Below are positions 2,840-13,430 of a stretch of 45,600 nt of DNA, in pieces. Every line of letters starts with the position of its first letter. Position 1 is the stretch's first letter. The notes beneath the pieces were generated by a model that saw nothing but the letters and a program-made list of their open reading frames with translations, searched no databases and was not told the origin of the DNA. Location of the stretch: positions 1 through 45,600 of the forward strand of contig BJGO01000002.1 in assembly GCA_014190535.1 (NCBI GenBank), written 5' to 3'. Source of the stretch: Bacteroidota bacterium. GTDB lineage: Bacteria > Bacteroidota > Bacteroidia > Chitinophagales > UBA10324. Position numbers and translations under genes: made by a program.

Positions 2840-4534
2840 ATGAAAAGACGATATACCATTTACGCTGTAACGGCAATCATCGCACTCATTATTGTAAACT
2901 CGATTTCTTACGAAACTACAAGTAGCACTGCGGGTTCGCCGGCTGCCCGTTGTGGTGCTCCGGCGGATGGAGGCGCTACGTGTACCGGATGTCATGGAGG
3001 TACTACAATTATTGATCTGGGGTTAAATAATGGATGGATTGTATCTGACATACCTGCAGGTGGTTACGTGCCCGGTGAAACCTATACCTTCACGGCTACT
3101 GCAACACAGGTAGGTAGCTCGAAGTTTGGTTTTCAGATGTCGCCACAGGCATTGAATGGCGCATACCTTGGAACGATGATTGTCACCGATGCGGTTCAAA
3201 CACAGATTGTGGGCACGAAGTATATCACGCATAAGTCGGCCGGTACGGCCGGTTCGGGTTCCAAGTCGTGGAGCTTCGATTGGATAGCACCGGTGGCCGG
3301 AACCGGCACGGTAAGTTTTTATGCCTGTTTTAATGCAACCAACAGTAACTCATCGAGCAGTGGTGATCAGATTTATAAAACAATATACACGGTTAACGAA
3401 TGCGTGGTAAGTGCATCAGTTTCAGCTCCGGTAACTTCTATATGCAGTAACCAAACCGCTTCATTAAATGCACAGGGAACAGGATCTTATTTATGGAGTA
3501 ACGGAGCAACAACACAAAACATTTCAGTAAACACATCAGGGGCATATGCCGTTACCGTTACTAATGGTGCCGGTTGTACGGCGGCAAGCACACCCGTTTC
3601 GATTTCGGTAACCAATGTGCCTGCAAGTCCCATAATAACATTACCCGATCAGGCTTGTGTTGGTGCAACGGTAGCTTTATCCGTAGATAATTTTAATCCT
3701 GCCTTGAATTATTCTTGGAATATTGACGGTACGTCATCCATAGCGGTCGACAGTTCATCGTTTACGTTTGATCTATCGTGGGGTAGCACCGGTACCTACA
3801 ATTACTCCTTTACCGCATCAGAACTAAATTGTATCAGCAACCCCACATCAGGCACAATACAAATTGGTGCTGAACCCATCATCTCGACATCGGCTATACC
3901 GGAATCTGCCTGCCCGGGCAGTTGTTTCCCGATCAGCATCACCGGAGCCGCAAGCGTTTCCATTAACGGAGCCGGCGTGGCAATTCCTGATTCGCTTTGC
4001 GCTACCGGTAGCGGAAGTTATGATATTGTGGCTTTATCGACTGAAGGTTGTCAGGCCTCGTCTTTAGTGCAAATCGATATTCTTAATGCACCCAATATTT
4101 CCCTGGTTCAAACAGCGAACACCCTCTGTATTTCCGATACGAACGGCATAACCTCCTCAGTTTGGGCTCTCAATGGTAACACCATTGCAGGGAACACGGA
4201 TTGCATCGACATGACTGAATCCGGAACCTACAGTATTATCGTTACTGGAGAGAATGGTTGCACGGCGACATCATCCGGTGCATTTACCTTAACAGGTCTT
4301 AGTACAACGGCACAACTTCCGCTTACCTATAATAATCCGGTGCAGTTTAACCTGATGTTAAATAATAATCCGGAAGGCCAATTTATACTAAGCGACCTGA
4401 GTGGGCGCGTAGTTAGGAGTGAAGCCGTCTCTGTTAACGCCATTATTGCATTGAATACGATACCTGAGGGCATCTACCTTGCTCAAATTATTTCTGAAAA
4501 TCAGATTCATAATTTTCAGATTATTAAACAATAG
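2840..4534 (+). CDS. T9SS-secreted protein with N-terminal Reeler-like domain carrying a CXXCH motif, Ig-like repeats and C-terminal sorting domain
   Basis: N-terminal hydrophobic anchor or signal. CGAPADGGATCTGCHGG (CTGCH at nt 2981..2995). FGFQMSP...ITHKSAG...WSFDWIAPVAGTGTVSFYACFNA resembles the Reeler domain layout. There are at least three modules of the type C..Q.A.L.A.G...Y.W..G.T...I.V...G.Y.V.V.N..GC. The C-terminal sorting domain is ...GIYLAQIISENQIHNFQIIKQ. Confidence 0.7.
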   Translation: MKRRYTIYAVTAIIALIIVNSISYETTSSTAGSPAARCGAPADGGATCTGCHGGTTIIDLGLNNGWIVSDIPAGGYVPGETYTFTATATQVGSSKFGFQMSPQALNGAYLGTMIVTDAVQTQIVGTKYITHKSAGTAGSGSKSWSFDWIAPVAGTGTVSFYACFNATNSNSSSSGDQIYKTIYTVNECVVSASVSAPVTSICSNQTASLNAQGTGSYLWSNGATTQNISVNTSGAYAVTVTNGAGCTAASTPVSISVTNVPASPIITLPDQACVGATVALSVDNFNPALNYSWNIDGTSSIAVDSSSFTFDLSWGSTGTYNYSFTASELNCISNPTSGTIQIGAEPIISTSAIPESACPGSCFPISITGAASVSINGAGVAIPDSLCATGSGSYDIVALSTEGCQASSLVQIDILNAPNISLVQTANTLCISDTNGITSSVWALNGNTIAGNTDCIDMTESGTYSIIVTGENGCTATSSGAFTLTGLSTTAQLPLTYNNPVQFNLMLNNNPEGQFILSDLSGRVVRSEAVSVNAIIALNTIPEGIYLAQIISENQIHNFQIIKQ

Positions 4535-4536
4535 TT

Positions 4537-4956
4537 TTAATAACGCCTTACGTCGGTTGCCTTAGGTATGATAACCATGATGCAGCCTGCAGTAATCACG
4601 TGAATACCTACGGAGAGCATTTTGAATGCCTTTGGTGCATGCGTGCTATCCGGAAGGGTCGGAGATATGCTCCATAAGAGGGAGATTAACAGGATAACGA
4701 CACAGGCTATGTTGAAATAAAAACCATACCTTCGGGTAATCTTAACCAGCATAAAATATCCAACGGATGCAAGTATGGATGAGATGATGGAAAGGAAGGT
4801 GATTACGGGAAAATTAATGTATTCATCCATCGAGAAATTTAGTAGTACACCATAGGCATAATTATAGGCATTATTGAGAATAGCCGCGGAAGAACCGGCT
4901 ACTAATCCGCCCCGTATCGAATGCCACATCTTAAATTTCTTACGTGTTACTGCCAT
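4537..4956 (-). CDS. Small integral membrane protein, unknown function (about 4 TM)
   Basis: 139 aa with four hydrophobic segments. It lies 25 nt downstream of the 398-aa gene on the same strand, so co-transcription is likely. Confidence 0.55.
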   Translation of the reverse strand: MAVTRKKFKMWHSIRGGLVAGSSAAILNNAYNYAYGVLLNFSMDEYINFPVITFLSIISSILASVGYFMLVKITRRYGFYFNIACVVILLISLLWSISPTLPDSTHAPKAFKMLSVGIHVITAGCIMVIIPKATDVRRY

Positions 4957-4981
4957 TTGTTAACGCTGTAAAACTAATCAT

Positions 4982-6178
4982 TTACAATTCAAAAAATCCA
5001 ACGGTGCCACCTACCCACGTTTTGTCTTTATTGTATTTCGTGCCAATCATTTCTCCGCGACTAAGCCGAGCCAGATTAGTTACCAAGTCGTATGACTCGT
5101 TAACCTGATTGTAGATATAGAGTAACCGGATTTCACACTTGATTAATCCGTCAGGAGATTCAACACAAGGCTCATATTGAACTTTGCGTTGGAGTATGTA
5201 TTGATTACGTTCTTTTGAGGGAATGGCATCGATATCTTTTTTTTCTACGTGAAACCGTACGCCATTTCCTGAAAAGGAGAAGAGGGGTTTAAGTACATAA
5301 TGTTCCAGATCTTCGGGTATAGGGTTGAGCTGATCAAGAAAATAGCAGTCGGGAATGAATGCACTTTGTATGAGTGGCATTGTGTATTTACTGATTCGGA
5401 AGAACCAGTTTGGGTGCCCGGCCCATTCAACATCTACTTCCTCGGTAAGGTTATAGCATCGCGTTAAATCGGTTCGGCGCAATAGCTCATCAAAAATGAT
5501 ACGGTTGTAAATTCTTTTTATCGGTGTTTTAATGCCATCACGCAGATAATACAACTGCCGGCCTTCACGGATTAGCGATGAGATGCAAACGGCTTTTATT
5601 CCGGATATCTTTTCGGTGATAATAAAATCTATCGCTGTTGGTTGTTTGTCGGGTTCAATTTCTAAGAGGATGACATGTTGCGGTTGATGATTACCGAGTA
5701 GCACTTGACTTAGATATTGATTATAGGTGCCATAATCCATTCCATTCAGCAGATGATGGAAAGCGTCGGGAATGGGAAAATAGGTTCTGAATGTGTGAGC
5801 CAGATAATTCTGATAAGCAAACAGGGAAGGGAACCCCTGCATTTCAATGAGTTGAGGATGGTACTCGCCGAGCTGATTTTTACATACGGCAAAATCAAGA
5901 GCGATAAAGAGCGATTGATTATCTTCACCCGGTACGTTACACGGAGCGGGAATGGCACCTTTCGTTGCTGATTTAAATCCGGGACTTTGAATAAAACGGA
6001 TAATATCCGAACCGGCATTTCGAAGCTTATGGCTAAAGGCTCGGTCTATGAATATAGGTGTTTCGGCAATGCGGAACGGTATTTTATGTTGTGTATAGCA
6101 CTCCATCTCCTGCAGAAATAGTAGGTAGGTGTTGTTGCTAAAGTTTTGATTGTAATGTTTTCGGATAGATGCAATCAT
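4982..6178 (-). CDS. Uncharacterized protein, possibly ATP-grasp-fold amidoligase-like
   Basis: 398 aa. YVLKPLFSFSGNGVRF resembles the ATP-grasp phosphate-binding strand-loop. The C-terminal KCEIRLLY...LARLSRGEMIGTKYNKDKTWVGG resembles the tail of circularly permuted or GSP-synthase-like ATP-grasp proteins. The fold assignment is tentative. Confidence 0.35.
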   Translation of the reverse strand: MIASIRKHYNQNFSNNTYLLFLQEMECYTQHKIPFRIAETPIFIDRAFSHKLRNAGSDIIRFIQSPGFKSATKGAIPAPCNVPGEDNQSLFIALDFAVCKNQLGEYHPQLIEMQGFPSLFAYQNYLAHTFRTYFPIPDAFHHLLNGMDYGTYNQYLSQVLLGNHQPQHVILLEIEPDKQPTAIDFIITEKISGIKAVCISSLIREGRQLYYLRDGIKTPIKRIYNRIIFDELLRRTDLTRCYNLTEEVDVEWAGHPNWFFRISKYTMPLIQSAFIPDCYFLDQLNPIPEDLEHYVLKPLFSFSGNGVRFHVEKKDIDAIPSKERNQYILQRKVQYEPCVESPDGLIKCEIRLLYIYNQVNESYDLVTNLARLSRGEMIGTKYNKDKTWVGGTVGFFEL

Positions 6179-6290
6179 GAGGTCTTAGAGTATGAATGGA
6201 TTTAAATATACCATAGCCACATTTATTTACTTACAGGAATATCCGTCGATGAACGGCAATTTGTTTAATTTGTGACATAAATTAACAACC

Positions 6291-7061
6291 ATGGAAACAA
6301 AAACGGACATCGTGAATAACTGGCTTCCCCGATACACCGGAACAGCTTTGGAGGATTTTGGTAAATATATCATACTGGTAAATTTTGGAAATTACGTGCA
6401 TCGCTTTGCTGAGTGGCACGGTGTGGAGGTTCGTGGTAAAGATCGTCCGATGATAAATGCTACAGCAGATGGCATAACGATTATTAATTTCGGTATGGGT
6501 AGCCCCAATGCCGCCACGGTTATTGATTTGCTAAGCGCCATAAAGCCCAAAGCCGTTTTGTTCCTGGGAAAGTGCGGTGGACTGAAAAAGAAAAATTTGT
6601 TGGGTGACTTAATATTACCGATTGCGGCAATACGTGGCGAGGGAACATCGAATGACTACTTTCCTGCCGAGGTACCTGCGTTACCGGCATTTGCTCTGCA
6701 AAAAGCCATATCAACCACTATACGGGATGCCAACTGCGACTATTGGACCGGTACGGTATATACAACGAACCGGCGCGTATGGGAACACGATGAACAATTT
6801 AAGGATTATCTCCGCAAAATACGTGCGATGTGTATCGATATGGAAACGGCTACAATCTTTACGGTGGCTTTCTCCAATAAAATTCCAGCCGGTGCCTTGT
6901 TGCTGGTCTCCGATCAGCCCATGGTGCCTGAAGGCGTTAAAACAGAGAAAAGTGATGCCGTGGTTACAGCAAATTACAGCGACCGTCATCTGCGCATTGG
7001 AATTGACTCGTTAAAGCAACTGATTAATGATGGTCTCACGGTGAGGCACCTAAAATTCTGA
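6291..7061 (+). CDS. amn: AMP nucleosidase, short catalytic-domain-only form (PNP/UDP phosphorylase fold)
   Basis: NWLPRYTG...YIILVNFGNYV...INFGMGSPNAATVIDLL...FLGKCGGL...IRGEGTS matches the AMP nucleosidase catalytic domain pattern. Length is 256 aa. Confidence 0.75.
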   Translation: METKTDIVNNWLPRYTGTALEDFGKYIILVNFGNYVHRFAEWHGVEVRGKDRPMINATADGITIINFGMGSPNAATVIDLLSAIKPKAVLFLGKCGGLKKKNLLGDLILPIAAIRGEGTSNDYFPAEVPALPAFALQKAISTTIRDANCDYWTGTVYTTNRRVWEHDEQFKDYLRKIRAMCIDMETATIFTVAFSNKIPAGALLLVSDQPMVPEGVKTEKSDAVVTANYSDRHLRIGIDSLKQLINDGLTVRHLKF

Positions 7062-7066
7062 AGCTG

Positions 7067-8071
7067 ATGCAGAAATTATTTTCTGAAATTGAGCGTGAGC
7101 TAAAAAATAAAATCTATCACCCTTTATATATACTGGAGGGCGAGGAACCTTATTATAATGAGGTGTTGACAGACTATTTTGAGAACCACATACTAAGCGA
7201 TGCGGAGAAAGGATTTAACCTCACCATCGTTTATGGTAAGGATGTAAATGACAGTAAGATTGCCGCATTAGCTAACTCGTATCCGATGTTTGGCAATTAC
7301 AATATTGTTATAGTTAAGGAGGCGCAGTTTATTAAAGATTGGTCTGCCCTGAGTCAGGTAGTGGCCTCGTTACCAAAAACAACTATTCTGGTATTATTTA
7401 TTTCAGGAGCGACTTTGGATAAGCGTAAAACGGAGATTAAGCAACTAATAAGTCATGCCGTACAACACAGCACAAAAAAACTTAAGGAGAGTGAGATACA
7501 GGATTTTATTGCGTCTTATTTTAAAAAGCACAAACACAAAATAAGTCCGGATACCGTTCAGCTGCTTACTGACCATGTTAATCAGGATTTATCATTTATA
7601 GTAAATGAAATGAATAAACTGATTTTGAATGTGCCCGCTGAAAATGAAATTACTGCGGCACATGTACAGGAGTTTATTGGTATACATAAAGAATATAATG
7701 TGTTTGCTCTGACCAAAGCTTTGGGTACACGACAAATTAAAGAGGCTTTGCTCATTGCTGATTATTTCTCCCGAAATTCAAAAGAAAATCCATTGGTGGT
7801 TATTCTTTCACAACTATATTCATACTTTAATAAAGTACTGTTATACCGTACGATGCGTGCATCTGCTCCAAATGAAATCGCATCGGCACTGGGAGTTAAT
7901 CCATACTTTATAAAAGAATATGAATCTGCGGCACGCATCTATACCAATGCCAGACTGTTTAACATATTCGAACTGTTAAAGGAATATGATTTGCGTTCAA
8001 AAAAAATAATAGAGAATGAATCGGATGATGGGGTGCTCATTCGCGAGTTAGTAATGCGTATTGTAGCTTAG
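7067..8071 (+). CDS. holA: DNA polymerase III subunit delta
   Basis: 334 aa. The N-terminus ...IYHPLYILEGEEPYYNEVLTDYF... and the overall helical C-terminal half are typical of HolA. It starts 5 nt after amn. Confidence 0.8.
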   Translation: MQKLFSEIERELKNKIYHPLYILEGEEPYYNEVLTDYFENHILSDAEKGFNLTIVYGKDVNDSKIAALANSYPMFGNYNIVIVKEAQFIKDWSALSQVVASLPKTTILVLFISGATLDKRKTEIKQLISHAVQHSTKKLKESEIQDFIASYFKKHKHKISPDTVQLLTDHVNQDLSFIVNEMNKLILNVPAENEITAAHVQEFIGIHKEYNVFALTKALGTRQIKEALLIADYFSRNSKENPLVVILSQLYSYFNKVLLYRTMRASAPNEIASALGVNPYFIKEYESAARIYTNARLFNIFELLKEYDLRSKKIIENESDDGVLIRELVMRIVA

Positions 8072-8907
8072 GCTCTTTTGGAATAGGGTTGATGATGTTC
8101 CGTGGCCATACGAAGGAAAGCCGGCAAAATGGTATTATGGGTATGAATAATGGCCTCAGGCCGGTGAAGGATGTCAAGGGTTTCATTGTACTTTTCAATA
8201 CTATGATGACTGATGATGAAATTCTTTTTATCCTCGCGCATCAGATAACGTAACATACCTTCCACATCGGATTCCGGATGAAACTGGGTGCCTACAAAGC
8301 AATCGTTGAACCGAATCGCCATTACAGCCTGCTCTAGATTTACGTGTGGTCGTTCTTTTTCCAGACATAACACCGTTCCGCCAAGTTCGCGCAAGCGGTT
8401 TTTGTTGATTTCAATCACTTGCCAGTCTCGCGAGTCAACAACGTAAAAAGGATCATTAAGATGTTCAAATAATAGTTCCTTCTTTCCCGCCTCGGTCTTG
8501 TGCGTAGGAAAAATGCCAAATGCTGTAGACTTGCGAAGGCATACATTGCCTAACTGATAGTACCGGCAATAAATCTGAAAGGAGTGGCAAATCAGAAAAA
8601 CATGTTTACGGCGCTCAGGATGTTTTAGGTTAAATGCCTGGATATCATCCATTAACCGAAAAAACTTTCGCTCCCATTCACTTCCTTCACTATCGAGCGG
8701 ACTACCCGGACCACCACTGCTGATATAAATATCAAAGCCTAAATCAGCCATTTCATTTTTTCCTCGTACATCATAGACCTCCATTTGCAAATCACGATTG
8801 TTATTCAGGGCAAATTCATGGACAATAGATTTTATACAACGCATGCCCTCATTAGGCAGGCCATCATACATATCAAGCACGGCAACGTTTAACGGTTTCA
8901 GCATCAT
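8068..8907 (-). CDS. Class-I glutamine amidotransferase-like protein (GuaA1/gamma-glutamyl-hydrolase-like)
   Basis: Nucleophile-elbow Cys in FLICHSFQ and a His-Glu pair in GTQFHPES. The track ORF starts at TTG 8916; I prefer ATG 8907 (MMLKPLNVAVLD...). It is the last gene of the four-gene operon. Confidence 0.7.
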   Translation of the reverse strand: MMLKPLNVAVLDMYDGLPNEGMRCIKSIVHEFALNNNRDLQMEVYDVRGKNEMADLGFDIYISSGGPGSPLDSEGSEWERKFFRLMDDIQAFNLKHPERRKHVFLICHSFQIYCRYYQLGNVCLRKSTAFGIFPTHKTEAGKKELLFEHLNDPFYVVDSRDWQVIEINKNRLRELGGTVLCLEKERPHVNLEQAVMAIRFNDCFVGTQFHPESDVEGMLRYLMREDKKNFIISHHSIEKYNETLDILHRPEAIIHTHNTILPAFLRMATEHHQPYSKRA

Positions 8908-8919
8908 TAGGCGCAAATA

Positions 8920-10017
8920 TCAGATGCCATCAAGAGTTTGCTCGCAGATATAATCCACAACGGATTCAAGACTTTGTGTAGACTCATACACAGCTAACTG
9001 CCGGTCGGCCCCTGTTCCCTGTTCCAGGATTGTTCGCACATAATCTACTTCACGTTTTATATCCAGTTCATCAACAACATCACTGATGAAATCAAGAAGC
9101 TCGTGAATCAATGCTCGCGTGTTTACTTCCATCTCCTTACCAAAGTCGATCATTTTACCATCAATACCATAGCGGCATGCACGCCATTTATTTTCATTAA
9201 TTAATGCTCTGCGATAACTCATGAAATTTAAATTTTGCTCTCTGAGTTTGGTGAGTTTACAAACCAATGCCTGAAACAGCGCAACCACCGACATCGTTTC
9301 GTTAATATGCATAGGGATATCGCAAATGCGGAATTCAATTGTGTTGAAAAAAGGATGAACGCGTAAATCCCACCATATTTTTTTTGCATTATCGATGCAA
9401 CCGGTTTTTACAAGCAGATTAACATAGTTCTTGTATTCATCATAACTGCTGAAATGATCCGGAATACCGGTTCGGGGAAAACGTTCGAATACTTTTGCTC
9501 GGAATGATTTAAAACCGGTATTACGCCCTTCCCAAAAAGGTGAGTTTGTTGTTAAGGCATAAACGTGTGGCAGAAAATATCGTATGGTATTGGCTATATG
9601 TATAGCCAGATTTTTATCCTCAATACCTATATGAACATGCAATCCGAAAATCAGATTTGATCTTGCGGCCTCCTGCATTTCATTTACAATTTCTTCATAG
9701 CGTGGATTAGGAGTAATCAGCTGGGTATTCCAATGAGAAAAAGGGTGAGTGCCGCTGGCACCTATCTTTAAACCCAGCGAATGAGCAATATCGGCAATAG
9801 ATTTTCTTAAGTTTCCTAAGTCGTGGCGAGCTTCGTGAATGTTCTGGCAGATGCCCGTTCCGGCCTCTACTACTGCCTGATGCATTTCTGCCTTTACCTG
9901 ATCGTTGAGCCGTTTGGCCGCCAATTCAACAATTTTTTGATCGTGTGATTTTAATTGGCGGGTAAGCGGGTCAATGACCATATATTCTTCCTCTACACCA
10001 ATGGTGAATGCTTTCAT
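8920..10017 (-). CDS. Carboxylate-amine ligase, GCS2/YbdK family (glutamate-cysteine ligase family 2)
   Basis: The N-terminal FTIGVEEEYMVID motif, GLHVHIG, the 365-aa length and overall collinearity match YbdK-type ligases. Confidence 0.85.
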   Translation of the reverse strand: MKAFTIGVEEEYMVIDPLTRQLKSHDQKIVELAAKRLNDQVKAEMHQAVVEAGTGICQNIHEARHDLGNLRKSIADIAHSLGLKIGASGTHPFSHWNTQLITPNPRYEEIVNEMQEAARSNLIFGLHVHIGIEDKNLAIHIANTIRYFLPHVYALTTNSPFWEGRNTGFKSFRAKVFERFPRTGIPDHFSSYDEYKNYVNLLVKTGCIDNAKKIWWDLRVHPFFNTIEFRICDIPMHINETMSVVALFQALVCKLTKLREQNLNFMSYRRALINENKWRACRYGIDGKMIDFGKEMEVNTRALIHELLDFISDVVDELDIKREVDYVRTILEQGTGADRQLAVYESTQSLESVVDYICEQTLDGI

Positions 10018-10028
10018 GAGATATGCGT

Positions 10029-11036
10029 TTATACGTTTTCCGATGTCTTTTTTCTTGGTGTACGTTTAACCGCTTTTTGCTCGATTGATTTATCAGTAGC
10101 AAAGGCTTTAACGAATTCGCCCCAGGTAAGATTGTTTTTACCGGGCTTGAATGATTTGGCTCGATCTATAGCCAGATCTGCCGCAACACGGACAACCCAA
10201 TCAAAATTTTCCTGACCAACCGAATTCACGTCTGCATCGGGTGCGGGATTACAAAAATCAATGGCATAGGGTATACCATTACGAACGGCCAGTTCAACCG
10301 TATTGAAATCATAGCCAAGGTATTTATTTAACCGAATAACATAGTCCTCCATCGTTTGCAGTAGTTTTTTGTCTGCATTAAACTTGTTGTGGACATAACG
10401 AAGATGATGTGGGTTTCGAGGCTCATACTGCATCATTCGAACCTGATGACCTCCAATGCAATAGCAGCGGTAATATTCTTCAAAAATAATTTCCTCCTGT
10501 AGCATCATTACCAGAGTGCCGGTCTCATTATATTTCTCAAAAAATTCGTCGCGGTTATTGAGTTTATACACACTTTTCCAGCCACCTCCCGAAAAAGGCT
10601 TCATATATGCAGGCCAACCGATGTATTGAAAAATATGATCCCAGTTTAAGGGAAATGCCAGATTGCGGAATGAAGAAGAACTCGTATCGGGCGGCATCTG
10701 ATTGGAAGGGAGTAGTACCGTTTTCGGAACGGGCACTCCTATTTTTTGAGCGAGTGCGTTATTAAAAAATTTTTCATCGGCACTCCACCAGAATGGATTA
10801 TTGATTACGGCTGTTCCGCTGATTGCCGCATTTTTCAGATAGCCTCGATAAAATGGAACATCCTGCGAAATGCGGTCAAGTATAACAGCATAATCAACCG
10901 GTGCGGCTTGTTCGACCATGTCAATCATTACACGCTCAGCTTCGATGTCTTTGATATTACGTTTGTTAATTTCTTCAATGAACGCATCAGGGAAAGTGGC
11001 TTCCATACCGTGCATTATGCCAATTTTCTTTTTCAT
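10029..11036 (-). CDS. ATP-grasp family ligase (RimK/GshB-like)
   Basis: KIGVPVPKTVLLP followed by YMKPFSGGGWKSVYKL (Gly-rich ATP loop) and TVELAVRNGIPYAIDFCN (Mg/ATP-binding E..N region). The Lys-rich C-terminal tail is KAVKRTPRKKTSENV. Confidence 0.75.
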   Translation of the reverse strand: MKKKIGIMHGMEATFPDAFIEEINKRNIKDIEAERVMIDMVEQAAPVDYAVILDRISQDVPFYRGYLKNAAISGTAVINNPFWWSADEKFFNNALAQKIGVPVPKTVLLPSNQMPPDTSSSSFRNLAFPLNWDHIFQYIGWPAYMKPFSGGGWKSVYKLNNRDEFFEKYNETGTLVMMLQEEIIFEEYYRCYCIGGHQVRMMQYEPRNPHHLRYVHNKFNADKKLLQTMEDYVIRLNKYLGYDFNTVELAVRNGIPYAIDFCNPAPDADVNSVGQENFDWVVRVAADLAIDRAKSFKPGKNNLTWGEFVKAFATDKSIEQKAVKRTPRKKTSENV

Positions 11037-11064
11037 AGTATAGTTTTTTTGTTTTACAAATTTC

Positions 11065-11772
11065 TTATTTAATCAGTGAAAGATAGTGAGGAAACATTTC
11101 GCGCCAAACCGGCCAGTCGTGATTTGCTCCCTGCCTGATGTCCAGCCAGTTGGCTATGCCCTTATGATTTAAAAGTTGATGCATATCAATATTGGCTTGC
11201 TTACAGATATCGTGTTCGCCGGTGCCTAACACCACATACATATCTCTGAACTCCGTATTCTGGGCATCAGGTAAGTAGTCGGGCGGGTTGTTGAAATAGA
11301 CATCGTCGTTGTAAAAGCCATCCAGTTGTTGCCTGATGTCGAATGCGGCACTCATGTTAAAAATATACTTTACCACTTCAGGGTGTCTGAAAGCAAAGTT
11401 GGTAGCGTGATAACCACCGAAACTACAACCTGCTGTTGCTATTCGGTTTTCACCGGTTTCACGCTGACAAAGAGGAATCAATTCCTCCAGGATATACTTA
11501 TCGTACCAAATATGATTTTTTACTCGGTCAGCCGGATGAATATATTTATTGTACCAACTGAATGAGTCGACACCGTCGGGGCAATAAATTTTTACTAAGC
11601 CTTCTTGGATAAACCACCGAACAGAATCTATGAGGTGAAAATCTTTATTCTCAAAATATCGTCCCATAGATGTAGGGAACAGAATTATCGGATAGCCTCT
11701 TGTCCCGAACGAAAGCATATCCATGTCTTTACCCAAATTTTGTGAATACCAGCGGTGATGTTGTTCAGTCAT
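11065..11772 (-). CDS. Alpha/beta-hydrolase, esterase-D/'putative esterase' family
   Basis: Nucleophile elbow GCSFGG, a downstream acidic residue and His (GEHD...NHDW), 235 aa. It is the first gene of the four-gene operon. Confidence 0.65.
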   Translation of the reverse strand: MTEQHHRWYSQNLGKDMDMLSFGTRGYPIILFPTSMGRYFENKDFHLIDSVRWFIQEGLVKIYCPDGVDSFSWYNKYIHPADRVKNHIWYDKYILEELIPLCQRETGENRIATAGCSFGGYHATNFAFRHPEVVKYIFNMSAAFDIRQQLDGFYNDDVYFNNPPDYLPDAQNTEFRDMYVVLGTGEHDICKQANIDMHQLLNHKGIANWLDIRQGANHDWPVWREMFPHYLSLIK

Positions 11773-11889
11773 AGTATGATGTTACCTTGCAAAATACAAA
11801 AGAGAAATGGGATTATGCTTGGGCAATCTCTTCGATTTGATTTTCTTTTTTTACATCGAGGCGGTTAAAAGATAGAGTGATGCGTTACA

Positions 11890-12336
11890 GTGAACTTAAA
11901 AAAGACATTCCGCAATCTCGAAGCCCTCGATGCAAATGAAATGCTGGATATAATCCATATTAATAGCATTGCTCCTTTGCTTATTGTTAAACACTTTAAA
12001 AAATTATTGATAAAAAGCGACCATCCTGTTGTCGTCAATATTTCAAGTTGGTTAGGTTCAGTATCTAATCTGACATTTGGCGGACATTACGGATATGTGG
12101 GAAGTAAAAACCTGTTGAATATTTTAAATAAGTCAATGGCTAACGAACTCAGGCAATACAAAATCATTTGTATTAATGTAAATCCGGGCTGGGTTAAAAC
12201 CGACATGGGCGGGCAGAAAACTCAATTCTCCCCTGAACAGGCTGTGACTAATATCATAACCAATATCGTATTAAACGCTACCATTAACGACAGCGGAAAA
12301 TTCTTCAATTTTGACGGAAGCGAACATCCGTGGTGA
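11890..12336 (+). pseudogene. N-terminally truncated short-chain dehydrogenase/reductase (CsgA/C-factor-like SDR) remnant
   Basis: It retains NISS...YGYVGSK (catalytic S, YxxxK) and NPGWVKTDMGG. The ~80-90 aa Rossmann TGxxxGxG N-terminus is missing. The ORF opens at GTG directly after an in-frame TGA (11878..11880). Only about 115 nt separate it from the divergent esterase gene. Confidence 0.6.
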
Positions 12337-12494
12337 AGTTAGACACAACAATATATGCTCATAAAAAAGGGCCTTCATCATCCTAATTATTCCCTTAATA
12401 ATTTATTCAGGATGGCACTAATAAAGCGACACTATTTTATCTCACCGATAGACTTATAAATTAGGTTTCTTTGCAACCTAAATTGCAATAAATC

Positions 12495-13430
12495 ATGTCG
12501 GAGATACACAAATGCATCATCATCGGTTCCGGACCTGCCGGATATACTGCGGCAATCTATGCGGCAAGAGCGAATTTAAAACCCATAATGATAACCGGGC
12601 TGGAGCAGGGTGGTCAGTTAATGAACACGACTGATGTAGAGAATTATCCGGGTTATCCGAATGGTATTCTGGGCCCGGAAATGATGGACGATTTCAAAAA
12701 ACAGGCTGAACGCATGGGAACAGATATTCGATATGGATACGTCAGTAAAGTGGACTTTTCAGGCACAGTGCATAAAATATGGGTAGACGAATCCAAAGAA
12801 TTAACTGCACATACGATAATTATTTCTACCGGCGCATCAGCAAAATGGTTAGGCATAGCATCGGAGAAAAAATATAACGGTGCCGGTGTATCTGCCTGCG
12901 CAGTGTGTGATGGTTTCTTTTATCGCGGCAAAGAAGTCGCAATAGTTGGTGCCGGTGATACAGCCTGTGAAGAAGCACTTTACTTATCAAAAATGTGTAC
13001 CACCGTTCATATGCTCATACGCAGTGAAAAAATGCGTGCGAGTAAGGTCATGCAGGATCGGGTGATGGCTACACCCAACATAAGGGTTTACTGGGATACA
13101 CAAACCGATGAGGTGCTTGGCGACGGAACAGTTGTTACTGCAGTCCGTGTAAAACATAATAAAACCGGGTTATTATCAGAAATTCCGGTATCCGGTTTTT
13201 TTGTTGCCATTGGTCACACTCCGAATTCCACGCCATTCAAAGGTATTATCGATATGGATGAGCAGGGCTATATACTTACCAAGCCGGGTACATCAAAAAC
13301 AAATGTAGAAGGTGTATTTGCTTCAGGTGATGTTCAGGATAAACACTACAGACAAGCGGTTACGGCCGCCGGATCAGGCTGTATGGCCGCGCTCGATGCC
13401 GAACGTTATCTGACCAATAAAGGATTATAA
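12495..13430 (+). CDS. trxB: Thioredoxin-disulfide reductase
   Basis: FAD motif IIIGSGPAGYTAAIYAARA, redox centre CAVCDG, NADPH motif VGAGDTACEEA, 311 aa. Confidence 0.95.
   Translation: MSEIHKCIIIGSGPAGYTAAIYAARANLKPIMITGLEQGGQLMNTTDVENYPGYPNGILGPEMMDDFKKQAERMGTDIRYGYVSKVDFSGTVHKIWVDESKELTAHTIIISTGASAKWLGIASEKKYNGAGVSACAVCDGFFYRGKEVAIVGAGDTACEEALYLSKMCTTVHMLIRSEKMRASKVMQDRVMATPNIRVYWDTQTDEVLGDGTVVTAVRVKHNKTGLLSEIPVSGFFVAIGHTPNSTPFKGIIDMDEQGYILTKPGTSKTNVEGVFASGDVQDKHYRQAVTAAGSGCMAALDAERYLTNKGL

Follow-up and report, generated by a model that had tools for sequence, protein, structure and literature searches.

When ligases from different superfamilies are encoded together, this is a recognised sign that peptide ligations take place in succession (PMC4431377), and operons combining ATP-grasp ligases, COOH-NH2 (GCS2-like) ligases and peptidases were described by Iyer, Abhiman, Burroughs and Aravind in 2009, as cited in PMC4431377. 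Among single enzymes, YgiC and YjfC ligate peptides to spermidine, and in the E-64 pathway Cp1B joins an acid to an amino acid (PMC12568646). Here we analysed a locus on contig BJGO01000002.1 of a Bacteroidota bacterium (assembly GCA_014190535.1, positions 1 to 45,600 of the forward strand; this whole stretch of 45,600 nucleotides (nt) is called the window). The locus consists of a four-gene operon, EST1-GRASP-GCS2-GAT, and a nearby fifth gene, O398. They encode an esterase, a classical ATP-grasp ligase, a carboxylate-amine ligase, a protein of class-I glutamine amidotransferase (GATase) fold and a predicted circularly permuted ATP-grasp ligase, respectively. The operon and O398 most likely assemble, and partly take apart, a small peptide-like molecule.

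A scan of one genome per GTDB species showed that at least 590 genomes encode a GRASP relative. Gene neighbourhoods were compared by tblastn and clustering of open reading frames (ORFs) in 80 loci from Bacteroidota and Ignavibacteria and six from Acidobacteriota, and full sets of genes were counted in the 59 loci with enough flanking sequence. The 80 loci revealed a recurrent layout, in which a divergent second esterase gene, EST2, lies upstream of EST1-GRASP-GCS2-GAT-O398. All six genes were present in 23 of the 59 loci, 15 others (mainly from Chitinophagaceae) had only EST2/GRASP-GCS2 within 8 kb, and the rest were partial combinations. GRASP and GCS2 were adjacent in 71 of the 80 loci and O398 directly followed GAT in about 38, with median gaps of 45 nt between GRASP and GCS2, 13 nt between GCS2 and GAT and 4 nt between GAT and O398; outside the window's genome, no gene is linked to GAT more tightly than O398. 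Saprospiraceae-type loci (L042, L051, L069 and L022) were arranged as EST1-GRASP-GAT-O398, without GCS2 in the cluster. The Thermoanaerobaculia (Acidobacteriota) carried a divergent O398 clade, 39-40% identical to the window protein; GRASP, GCS2 and O398 were directly adjacent, without GAT, in L085, L086 and L089, and an EST1-like gene was also found upstream of the ligases in the acidobacterial locus L090.

GRASP and GCS2 were 60-75% identical across the three phyla. Compared with the window proteins, GRASP identity was 64-75% in Bacteroidota and Ignavibacteria and 62-64% in Acidobacteriota, and GCS2 identity was 60-62% in Thermoanaerobaculia. Catalytic residues were conserved in all five proteins. 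The same order recurs in distant genomes, as in a conserved operon. Its recurrence across three phyla, in dozens of genomes, is far more than chance would produce, and with conservation in about 90 loci we reject a chance juxtaposition. Since the acidobacterial ligases adjoin one another without GAT and the hydrolase partners vary, we regard the three ligases as the core and the hydrolases as variable accessories. The preliminary description of this DNA, made from the sequence alone, had proposed neighbourhood conservation as a check, and the genes proved to be co-conserved in the 80 Bacteroidota and Ignavibacteria loci. Its boundary of four genes was too narrow, since O398 is a fifth conserved gene, and its two amide ligases become three with the addition of O398 as a ligase of the glutathione synthetase/GspS type (GS/GspS).

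O398 is called "hypothetical" in every source seen, and scans of Pfam and NCBIfam gave no match to it. Its AlphaFold model was confident, with a predicted local distance difference test score (pLDDT) of 91 and a predicted template modelling score (pTM) of 0.90. The 15 best PDB matches in a Foldseek search belonged to one structural class (E 2e-12 to 2e-6), and the next match had an E-value of 0.13. Among these matches were 3n6x ("putative glutathionylspermidine synthase"), YgiC of E. coli, the glutathione synthetases of yeast and human, and the fungal ligase Cp1B (E 2e-12 to 1e-9; template modelling (TM) scores 0.53-0.62); nematode GS-like effectors also belong to the class. The modelled fold assigns O398 to the circularly permuted ATP-grasp class and, because the fold matches are confined to the GS/GspS/YgiC class, O398 is, as judged from its predicted structure, the third ATP-dependent amide ligase of the system. 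All of its structural relatives (glutathione synthetase, YgiC/YjfC and Cp1B) couple an amine to a C-terminal carboxylate, that of a small peptide or acid.

At the sequence level, O398 scored 12.5 bits against PF03738 (GSP_synth), below the cut-off of 29.3, and the same model gave sub-threshold matches in 6 of 36 O398 homologues (best 3e-4). An O398 profile had no significant match among PDB sequences. When the profile was searched against 1.84 billion representatives, 1641 matches were obtained at E <= 1e-3 and 347 at E <= 1e-30, which points to a separate, modestly sized family with about 350 clusters (50% identity; E <= 1e-30). The window protein keeps all residues that are invariant in the family, despite the separation of its gene from the operon. 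Some distant homologues with 32-40% identity (P0264, P0267, P0314 and P0317) carry N-terminal extensions of 150-190 residues, which begin with a signal-peptide-like hydrophobic stretch and continue as Ala-rich sequence, an odd feature for an ATP-dependent ligase. An 870-residue gene call, P0246, joins a sodium:solute symporter (SSF) to O398 and is possibly a gene-calling artefact. No fusion to a ligase or hydrolase was seen among the O398-family fusions, which were examined as potential Rosetta-stone evidence.

GCS2 matched PF04107 (3e-64; 217.6 bits, cut-off 21), NF010039 "carboxylate-amine ligase" (532 bits, cut-off 371) and TIGR02050 (307 bits, cut-off 176). Its nearest structures were 1r8g and 1tt4, YbdK and its Salmonella homologue (about 1e-45), and the N-terminal GVEEEY motif was conserved in 72 sequences. 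By sequence, GCS2 is assigned unambiguously to the YbdK family of carboxylate-amine ligases. It scored below the cut-off of every glutamate-cysteine-ligase equivalog model (NF010043, 355 bits against 409; NF010041, 297 against 332; NF010042, 284 against 427; NF010044, 264 against 437; NF010045, 247 against 395; TIGR02048, 71 against 249) and by score lies outside these equivalogs.

GRASP had no Pfam match over threshold. It scored 25.7 bits (6e-6) against TIGR00768 (rimK_fam; cut-off 143) and 22.2 bits against the LysX model TIGR02144 (cut-off 276), which leaves it outside the RimK/LysX family, and R2K_2 gave a sub-threshold match in 27 of 30 GRASP homologues. Profile searches of the PDB at the sequence level returned marginal matches or none, so that fold comparison alone was informative. 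The AlphaFold model was moderate (pLDDT 68), and Foldseek matched it to PsnB, Ddl, ArgX/LysX, RimK and MdnC with E-values of about 1e-11 and a probability of 1.00. These matches are all classical ATP-grasp ligases, and no subfamily was favoured. On a model of this confidence, the fold and the KPxxGGGWK loop point to the ATP-grasp superfamily, in agreement with the preliminary description; K146, P147, G150-G152, W153 and K154 were invariant in 30 sequences. Of the profile matches that it had led us to expect, those to PF04107, PF00117 and PF00756 were over cut-off, and those to the RimK/LysX models and the Pfam ATP-grasp models were not.

The GRASP homologues differed in their C-terminal tails, which extend 7 to 164 residues beyond a conserved NLTWG motif. 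In Cytophagales, Sphingobacteriales and Saprospiraceae the tail is rich in Lys, Ala, Pro and Thr (K+R 28%, against 11% in the body; examples in Table 1), and in L069 it ends in a helix-hairpin-helix motif (PF14520, 2.9e-5, below cut-off). Chitinophagaceae lack the basic tail, and their GRASP proteins end 7-8 residues after the conserved core.

GAT scored 26.8 bits against PF00117 (cut-off 22.8), and all 16 homologues matched this family (best 1.6e-12); seven of the 16 also gave sub-threshold HTS/MetA matches. C110, H213, P214, E215 and the SGGPGSP strand were invariant in the 16 sequences. An hhalign comparison with E. coli PabA (sequence entered by hand) gave an E-value of 2.3e-5 and matched up the two proteins at the oxyanion strand, at the nucleophile elbow and at the HPE motif. 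GAT had been likened to the PuuD-type gamma-glutamyl hydrolases in the preliminary description. This identity is unsupported: none of the 16 homologues matched Peptidase_C26 (PF07722), even at E <= 1, and the GAT profile had no C26/PuuD-type match in the PDB. Because its motifs align with those of a true GATase and C26/PuuD matches are lacking, the sequence suggests that a role as ammonia donor is at least as likely as one in trimming. The make-and-trim module proposed earlier partly holds, as a conserved unit of ligases and hydrolase-fold proteins. In three Ignavibacteria loci and in L087, the position of GAT, between GCS2 and O398, is taken by a Peptidase_M29 homologue of about 340 amino acids (aa), and these homologues are about 70% identical between Ignavibacteria and the acidobacterium.

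EST1 is a member of PF00756 by a weak pass (32.4 bits, cut-off 22). Its best PDB relatives were CE1/putative esterases (5vol, 6e-7), which matched better than S-formylglutathione hydrolase, represented by a single partial match (7yvt, E 0.025), and an NCBIfam scan of EST1 gave no FrmB-type match. The Ser of GCSFGG and the His of NHDW were conserved in at least 98% of 41 homologues; the Asp of the triad was assigned by eye. All catalytic motifs quoted in the preliminary description were present in the translations and conserved across homologues, and its expectation that the catalytic residues of the GATase and the esterase would align was borne out, by PabA for the GAT triad and by the conserved Ser and His for EST1. 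EST1 lay directly upstream of GRASP in about 40 of the 80 loci. EST2 is a Fes-like member of PF00756 (5e-28), closest to the enterochelin, bacillibactin and IroE esterases, and in most relatives it is divergent and upstream of the cluster; tblastn found no EST2 in the window, and it is also absent from the closest relatives. Alpha/beta hydrolases of several families recur beside the ligases. In some Cyclobacteriaceae, EST1 and GRASP are separated by an additional alpha/beta hydrolase of the S33 type. In the thermoanaerobaculian locus L087, a 427-aa protein joins a domain of thiol transferase fold, weakly matched as DinB_2/YfiT-like (E 5e-4), to a Fes-like esterase, and its gene is convergent with O398, 36 nt from the O398 end. 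Standalone DinB_2 genes were found within 6 kb in L085, L086 and L087.

From this gene content and order, and from the folds and motifs, we infer a stepwise pathway. A core of three ligases would build a short amide-linked metabolite by sequential ligation, with the hydrolases serving turnover, editing or recycling, a scheme to which we give slightly less than an even chance. GCS2 would make the first amide bond, probably via a side-chain (gamma) carboxylate, and GRASP would extend the C-terminal carboxylate by one residue. O398 would then cap the new C-terminal carboxylate with an amine, as glutathione synthetase, GspS and YgiC do, the amine being an amino acid, a polyamine or ammonia released from glutamine by the adjacent GAT. 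GAT or the M29 aminopeptidase, together with one or two Fes-like serine esterases, would provide for turnover, editing or recycling. By analogy, the best reading of the product class is a short gamma-glutamyl-type peptide or a peptide-amine/amide.

Two modes of action are conceivable for the GAT-O398 pair. The motifs of a true GATase and the very close linkage of the two genes speak for a glutamine-dependent amidoligase, whereas the M29 peptidase that takes the place of GAT in other loci speaks for a synthetase and a hydrolase acting as antagonists. We know of no GspS-like or GS-like ligase with a GATase partner. ATP-grasp enzymes also form esters, as in D-Ala-D-lactate and the graspetides. 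Because of this ability, and because esterases flank GRASP, the esterases may, speculatively, reverse or edit an ester bond made by the ligase.

Several observations weigh against this pathway. The 60-75% identity of GRASP and GCS2 is unusually high for an accessory small-molecule pathway and also fits a conserved macromolecular substrate. Some of the best fold matches of GRASP have peptides or carrier proteins as substrates (PsnB, ArgX/LysX, RimK and MdnC), and many GRASP homologues have Lys-rich tails. The modules are also separable, as shown by EST2/GRASP-GCS2 in Chitinophagaceae and by the Saprospiraceae loci without GCS2, so that a strict linear three-step pathway is not obligatory. GAT, finally, could be either an ammonia donor or a hydrolase. 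A broader proposal, which we consider tentative and somewhat unlikely, is that the core makes an undescribed metabolite or cofactor (a C-terminally amidated or polyamine-capped gamma-glutamyl peptide, possibly a second thiol beside bacillithiol), or places a new peptide tag on a conserved protein. Its function would then be near-core in aerobic Bacteroidota, Ignavibacteria and Thermoanaerobaculia, and the GspS/GS class would gain in GAT-O398 its first member that depends on glutamine.

RimK acts on S6 and LysX on LysW, and the ligases of the cluster might likewise modify a conserved protein encoded elsewhere (e.g. a ribosomal or nucleoid protein) by attaching amino acids at its C-terminus or on a side chain, with the hydrolases removing the tag. 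The top GRASP folds act on peptides or proteins, GRASP is weakly similar to rimK_fam/LysX and to the R2K_2 clade of predicted protein modifiers, and the conservation of GRASP and GCS2 across phyla is extreme; the Lys/Ala/Pro-rich tails found in many lineages, one with a helix-hairpin-helix, suggest polyanion binding. However, those tails are absent in Chitinophagaceae, and the fold matches equally include Ddl, a small-molecule ligase. The GCS2/YbdK family and the structural relatives of O398 are known only to act on small molecules, and no conserved small ORF or carrier gene lies in or beside the cluster in about 90 loci. Protein tagging is the main rival to the stepwise pathway; we consider it unlikely, though it deserves serious attention. 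The glutathione-like thiol that the preliminary description had offered as a product found no specific support and is possible without being supported. In such a pathway, GCS2 would make gamma-Glu-Cys, GRASP would act like GshB and O398 like GspS or a glutathione-amide synthase, and the esterases would cleave S-acyl thioesters. To our knowledge, gamma-Glu-Cys ligation is the only known activity of the GCS2 family and so provides a family precedent; the O398 fold resembles glutathione synthetase and GspS, the architecture maps one-to-one on GshA/GshB/GspSA, and L087 has the DinB_2/YfiT-like::esterase fusion beside O398, with DinB_2 genes at 6 kb or less in three loci. Against this stand the GCS2 scores below all glutamate-cysteine-ligase cut-offs and the esterases, which are nearer to Fes/BesA/CE1 enzymes than to S-formylglutathione hydrolase. 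The DinB link rests on very few loci, and the sampled Bacteroidota loci have no DinB gene beside the cluster. Bacillithiol or N-methyl-bacillithiol, moreover, is already assigned to the host phyla, as Bacteroidota, Ignavibacteria and Acidobacteria are predicted, and Polaribacter has been shown, to make one or the other (PMC6282198). A thiol of this kind is quite improbable.

Two further explanations appear weaker still. In the PuuA/PuuD system, a glutamine-synthetase-superfamily ligase and a class-I GAT-fold protein share one operon, and the pair GCS2 and GAT, together with the numerous hydrolases, recalls this arrangement. In transient gamma-glutamylation for amine catabolism or salvage (Puu/Ipu-like), a ligase would place a glutamyl tag on the amine, to be taken off later by the GAT-fold protein. 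Three ligases are more than such tagging needs, however, and the cluster has no conserved oxidase, dehydrogenase or transaminase. The failure of all 16 GAT homologues to match Peptidase_C26 and the absence of GAT from the acidobacterial clusters also make this very improbable. Least probable of all is a secondary metabolite made independently of nonribosomal peptide synthetases, for example a siderophore or an antibiotic, in which case the Fes-like esterases would serve its release or protect the producer. Multi-ligase clusters often make such products (PMC4431377), and EST2 is most like the enterochelin, bacillibactin and IroE esterases, but the cluster lies among housekeeping genes, its layout is uniform with sequences 60-75% identical across phyla, and no transporter, TonB receptor or regulator is consistently linked to it. 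The preferred reading remains the stepwise synthesis of a short amide-linked metabolite by the three ligases.

The coordinates of the genes and neighbouring features are given in Table 1. The four minus-strand ORFs of the preliminary description were found where it had placed them, with intergenic gaps of 28 nt between EST1 and GRASP, 11 nt between GRASP and GCS2 and 3 nt between GCS2 and GAT (12 nt from the GAT ATG). For GAT, the ATG at 8907 is as likely a start as the TTG and gives an N-terminus of homologue length. The overlap of the GAT and holA stops also held: in TTAG at 8068-8071, the holA stop TAG (8069-8071, +) overlaps the GAT stop TAA (complement of 8068-8070). In the window, O398 is 1.9 kb from the four-gene operon, and holA and a short-form AMP nucleosidase gene (256 aa; NF005500, 427 bits) lie between GAT and O398 in the opposite orientation. 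L081, L083 and L084, which are the closest relatives (GRASP identity 83-88%), carry this insertion too, indicating that it is stable in this lineage, and they share the layout of the 112-nt gap upstream of O398. O398 must here have its own transcription from the region 6179..6290.

Table 1. Coordinates of the ligase cluster, its neighbours and related features in other loci
Feature	Locus	Position	Strand	Remarks
EST1, cytoplasmic "putative esterase" alpha/beta serine hydrolase	window	11065..11772	-	235 aa; first operon gene
GRASP, divergent classical ATP-grasp ligase	window	10029..11036	-	335 aa; short Lys-rich C-terminal tail
GRASP tail, example	window	10029-10100	-	
GCS2, YbdK-family carboxylate-amine ligase	window	8920..10017	-	365 aa
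GAT, standalone class-I GATase-fold protein	window	8068..8916	-	282 aa from TTG; Cys-His-Glu triad
O398, predicted circularly permuted ATP-grasp	window	4982..6178	-	398 aa; outside the four-gene operon
Intergenic region 5' of EST1, presumed promoter/leader	window	11773..11889	-	117 nt
Intergenic region 5' of O398	window	6179..6290	-	112 nt; divergently shared with the AMP nucleosidase gene
holA and AMP nucleosidase gene	window	6291-8071	+	
ORF of the short-chain dehydrogenase/reductase (SDR) type	window	11890-12336	+	148 aa
ORF downstream of O398	window	4537-4956	-	139 aa
Thioredoxin reductase-like ORF	window	12495-13430	+	311 aa
GRASP tail, example	L042	1760-3187		
GRASP tail, example	L069	5819-7222		
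M29 homologue at the GAT position	L053	10122-11141		
M29 homologue at the GAT position	L056	7172-8236		
M29 homologue at the GAT position	L080	6031-7059		
M29 homologue at the GAT position	L087	6510-7524		
DinB_2/YfiT-like::Fes-like esterase fusion	L087	10224-11507	-	427 aa; Thermoanaerobaculia
Gene inserted inside the cluster	L007	9068-10213		381 aa

The intergenic gap of 117 nt that had been described as a promoter region was confirmed as a gap. A promoter scan of it found no sigma-70-like site and no Bacteroidota -7 site (TAnnTTTG), and the promoter of the four-gene operon is therefore unproven. A search of Rfam for a riboswitch or leader RNA gave no match in window positions 4500-12600 (E <= 0.1) and none in eight related loci at the gathering score. 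None of the five window proteins has a signal-peptide-like N-terminus on inspection of the sequences. In the cluster and flanks of about 90 loci, no conserved precursor, carrier or transporter gene recurs, and the neighbours are housekeeping genes (BipA, RibBA, IspF, PrmC, holA) or reflect lineage-specific synteny. PADLOC gave a single negligible match, and a known defence system was rejected.

Several neighbouring ORFs were noted. Dehydrogenase profiles match the SDR ORF only from about position 86, in its C-terminal part, and the 117 nt upstream could not encode the Rossmann N-terminus that it lacks. The ORF resembles the remnant of a truncated gene and lies exactly at the site of the divergent EST2 in other lineages. 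The 139-aa ORF starts 25 nt downstream of O398 and has several long hydrophobic stretches that resemble transmembrane helices by eye. Among the loci fetched, none but the closest relatives has it (61-71% identity). The 311-aa ORF, about 700 bp from the operon start, is thioredoxin reductase-like by eye (GSGPAG and CAVCDG motifs), and its proximity is probably coincidental because the adjacency is not conserved in other loci. Occasional insertions of unrelated genes inside the cluster comprise a gene for a Uma2-family endonuclease between GRASP and GCS2 (L030, L072 and L074) and the gene for a 381-aa protein in L007.

The presence of a GRASP gene in at least 590 species-representative genomes and the identity of 60-75% over three phyla suggest an important, unstudied function. 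Identification of the product could reveal a small-molecule cofactor, a stress metabolite or a protein tag in bacteria that dominate soil, rhizosphere and freshwater, and would give the YbdK-type ligase subfamily its first physiological role. The GAT-O398 pair offers a test case for a glutaminase-driven GspS/GS-type ligase.

Neither the enzyme superfamilies nor the principle of linking ligases is new. We agree with the preliminary description that the pathway is uncharacterised, as the searchable literature yielded no characterised pathway for the cluster, which the 2009 survey by Iyer et al. may already list; nor, as far as checked, did that literature contain a description of the three-ligase combination, the unannotated O398 family or the O398-GATase pairing. 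Among single families, O398 shares the fold of YgiC/YjfC and the eukaryotic glutathione synthetases at an identity of 10-16%. The window GCS2 is a clear member of the family that contains the haloarchaeal GshA and EgtA, in a subfamily named only "carboxylate-amine ligase". The RimK/LysX/ArgX and graspetide ligases are among the folds closest to GRASP, but the scores are far below the family cut-offs, and no gene for a target or carrier protein lies near the cluster. RimK works alongside a hydrolase partner in some bacteria. With the pairs CarA/CarB and PabA/PabB, the comparison concerns GAT, whose SGGPGSP strand, nucleophile elbow and HPE motif align with PabA, and which lies almost always immediately upstream of O398; in contrast to CarA or PabA, GAT is missing or replaced by an M29 homologue in other phyla.

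The nearest worked example is the E. coli route of GshA, GshB and GspS. Both systems have three ATP-dependent ligases, namely a gamma-amide starter, a classical ATP-grasp enzyme and an enzyme of the GspS/circularly permuted type. In both, a hydrolase-fold partner with a Cys nucleophile stands beside the last ligase, and the enzymes are cytoplasmic. The locus described here differs in that GCS2 is of the YbdK type rather than GshA, GRASP does not match any GshB model and O398 does not reach the threshold of GSP_synth. Where the amidase of E. coli GspS has a CHAP fold, the Cys enzyme of this locus is of the class-I GATase fold, and the genes, dispersed in E. coli, are clustered here.

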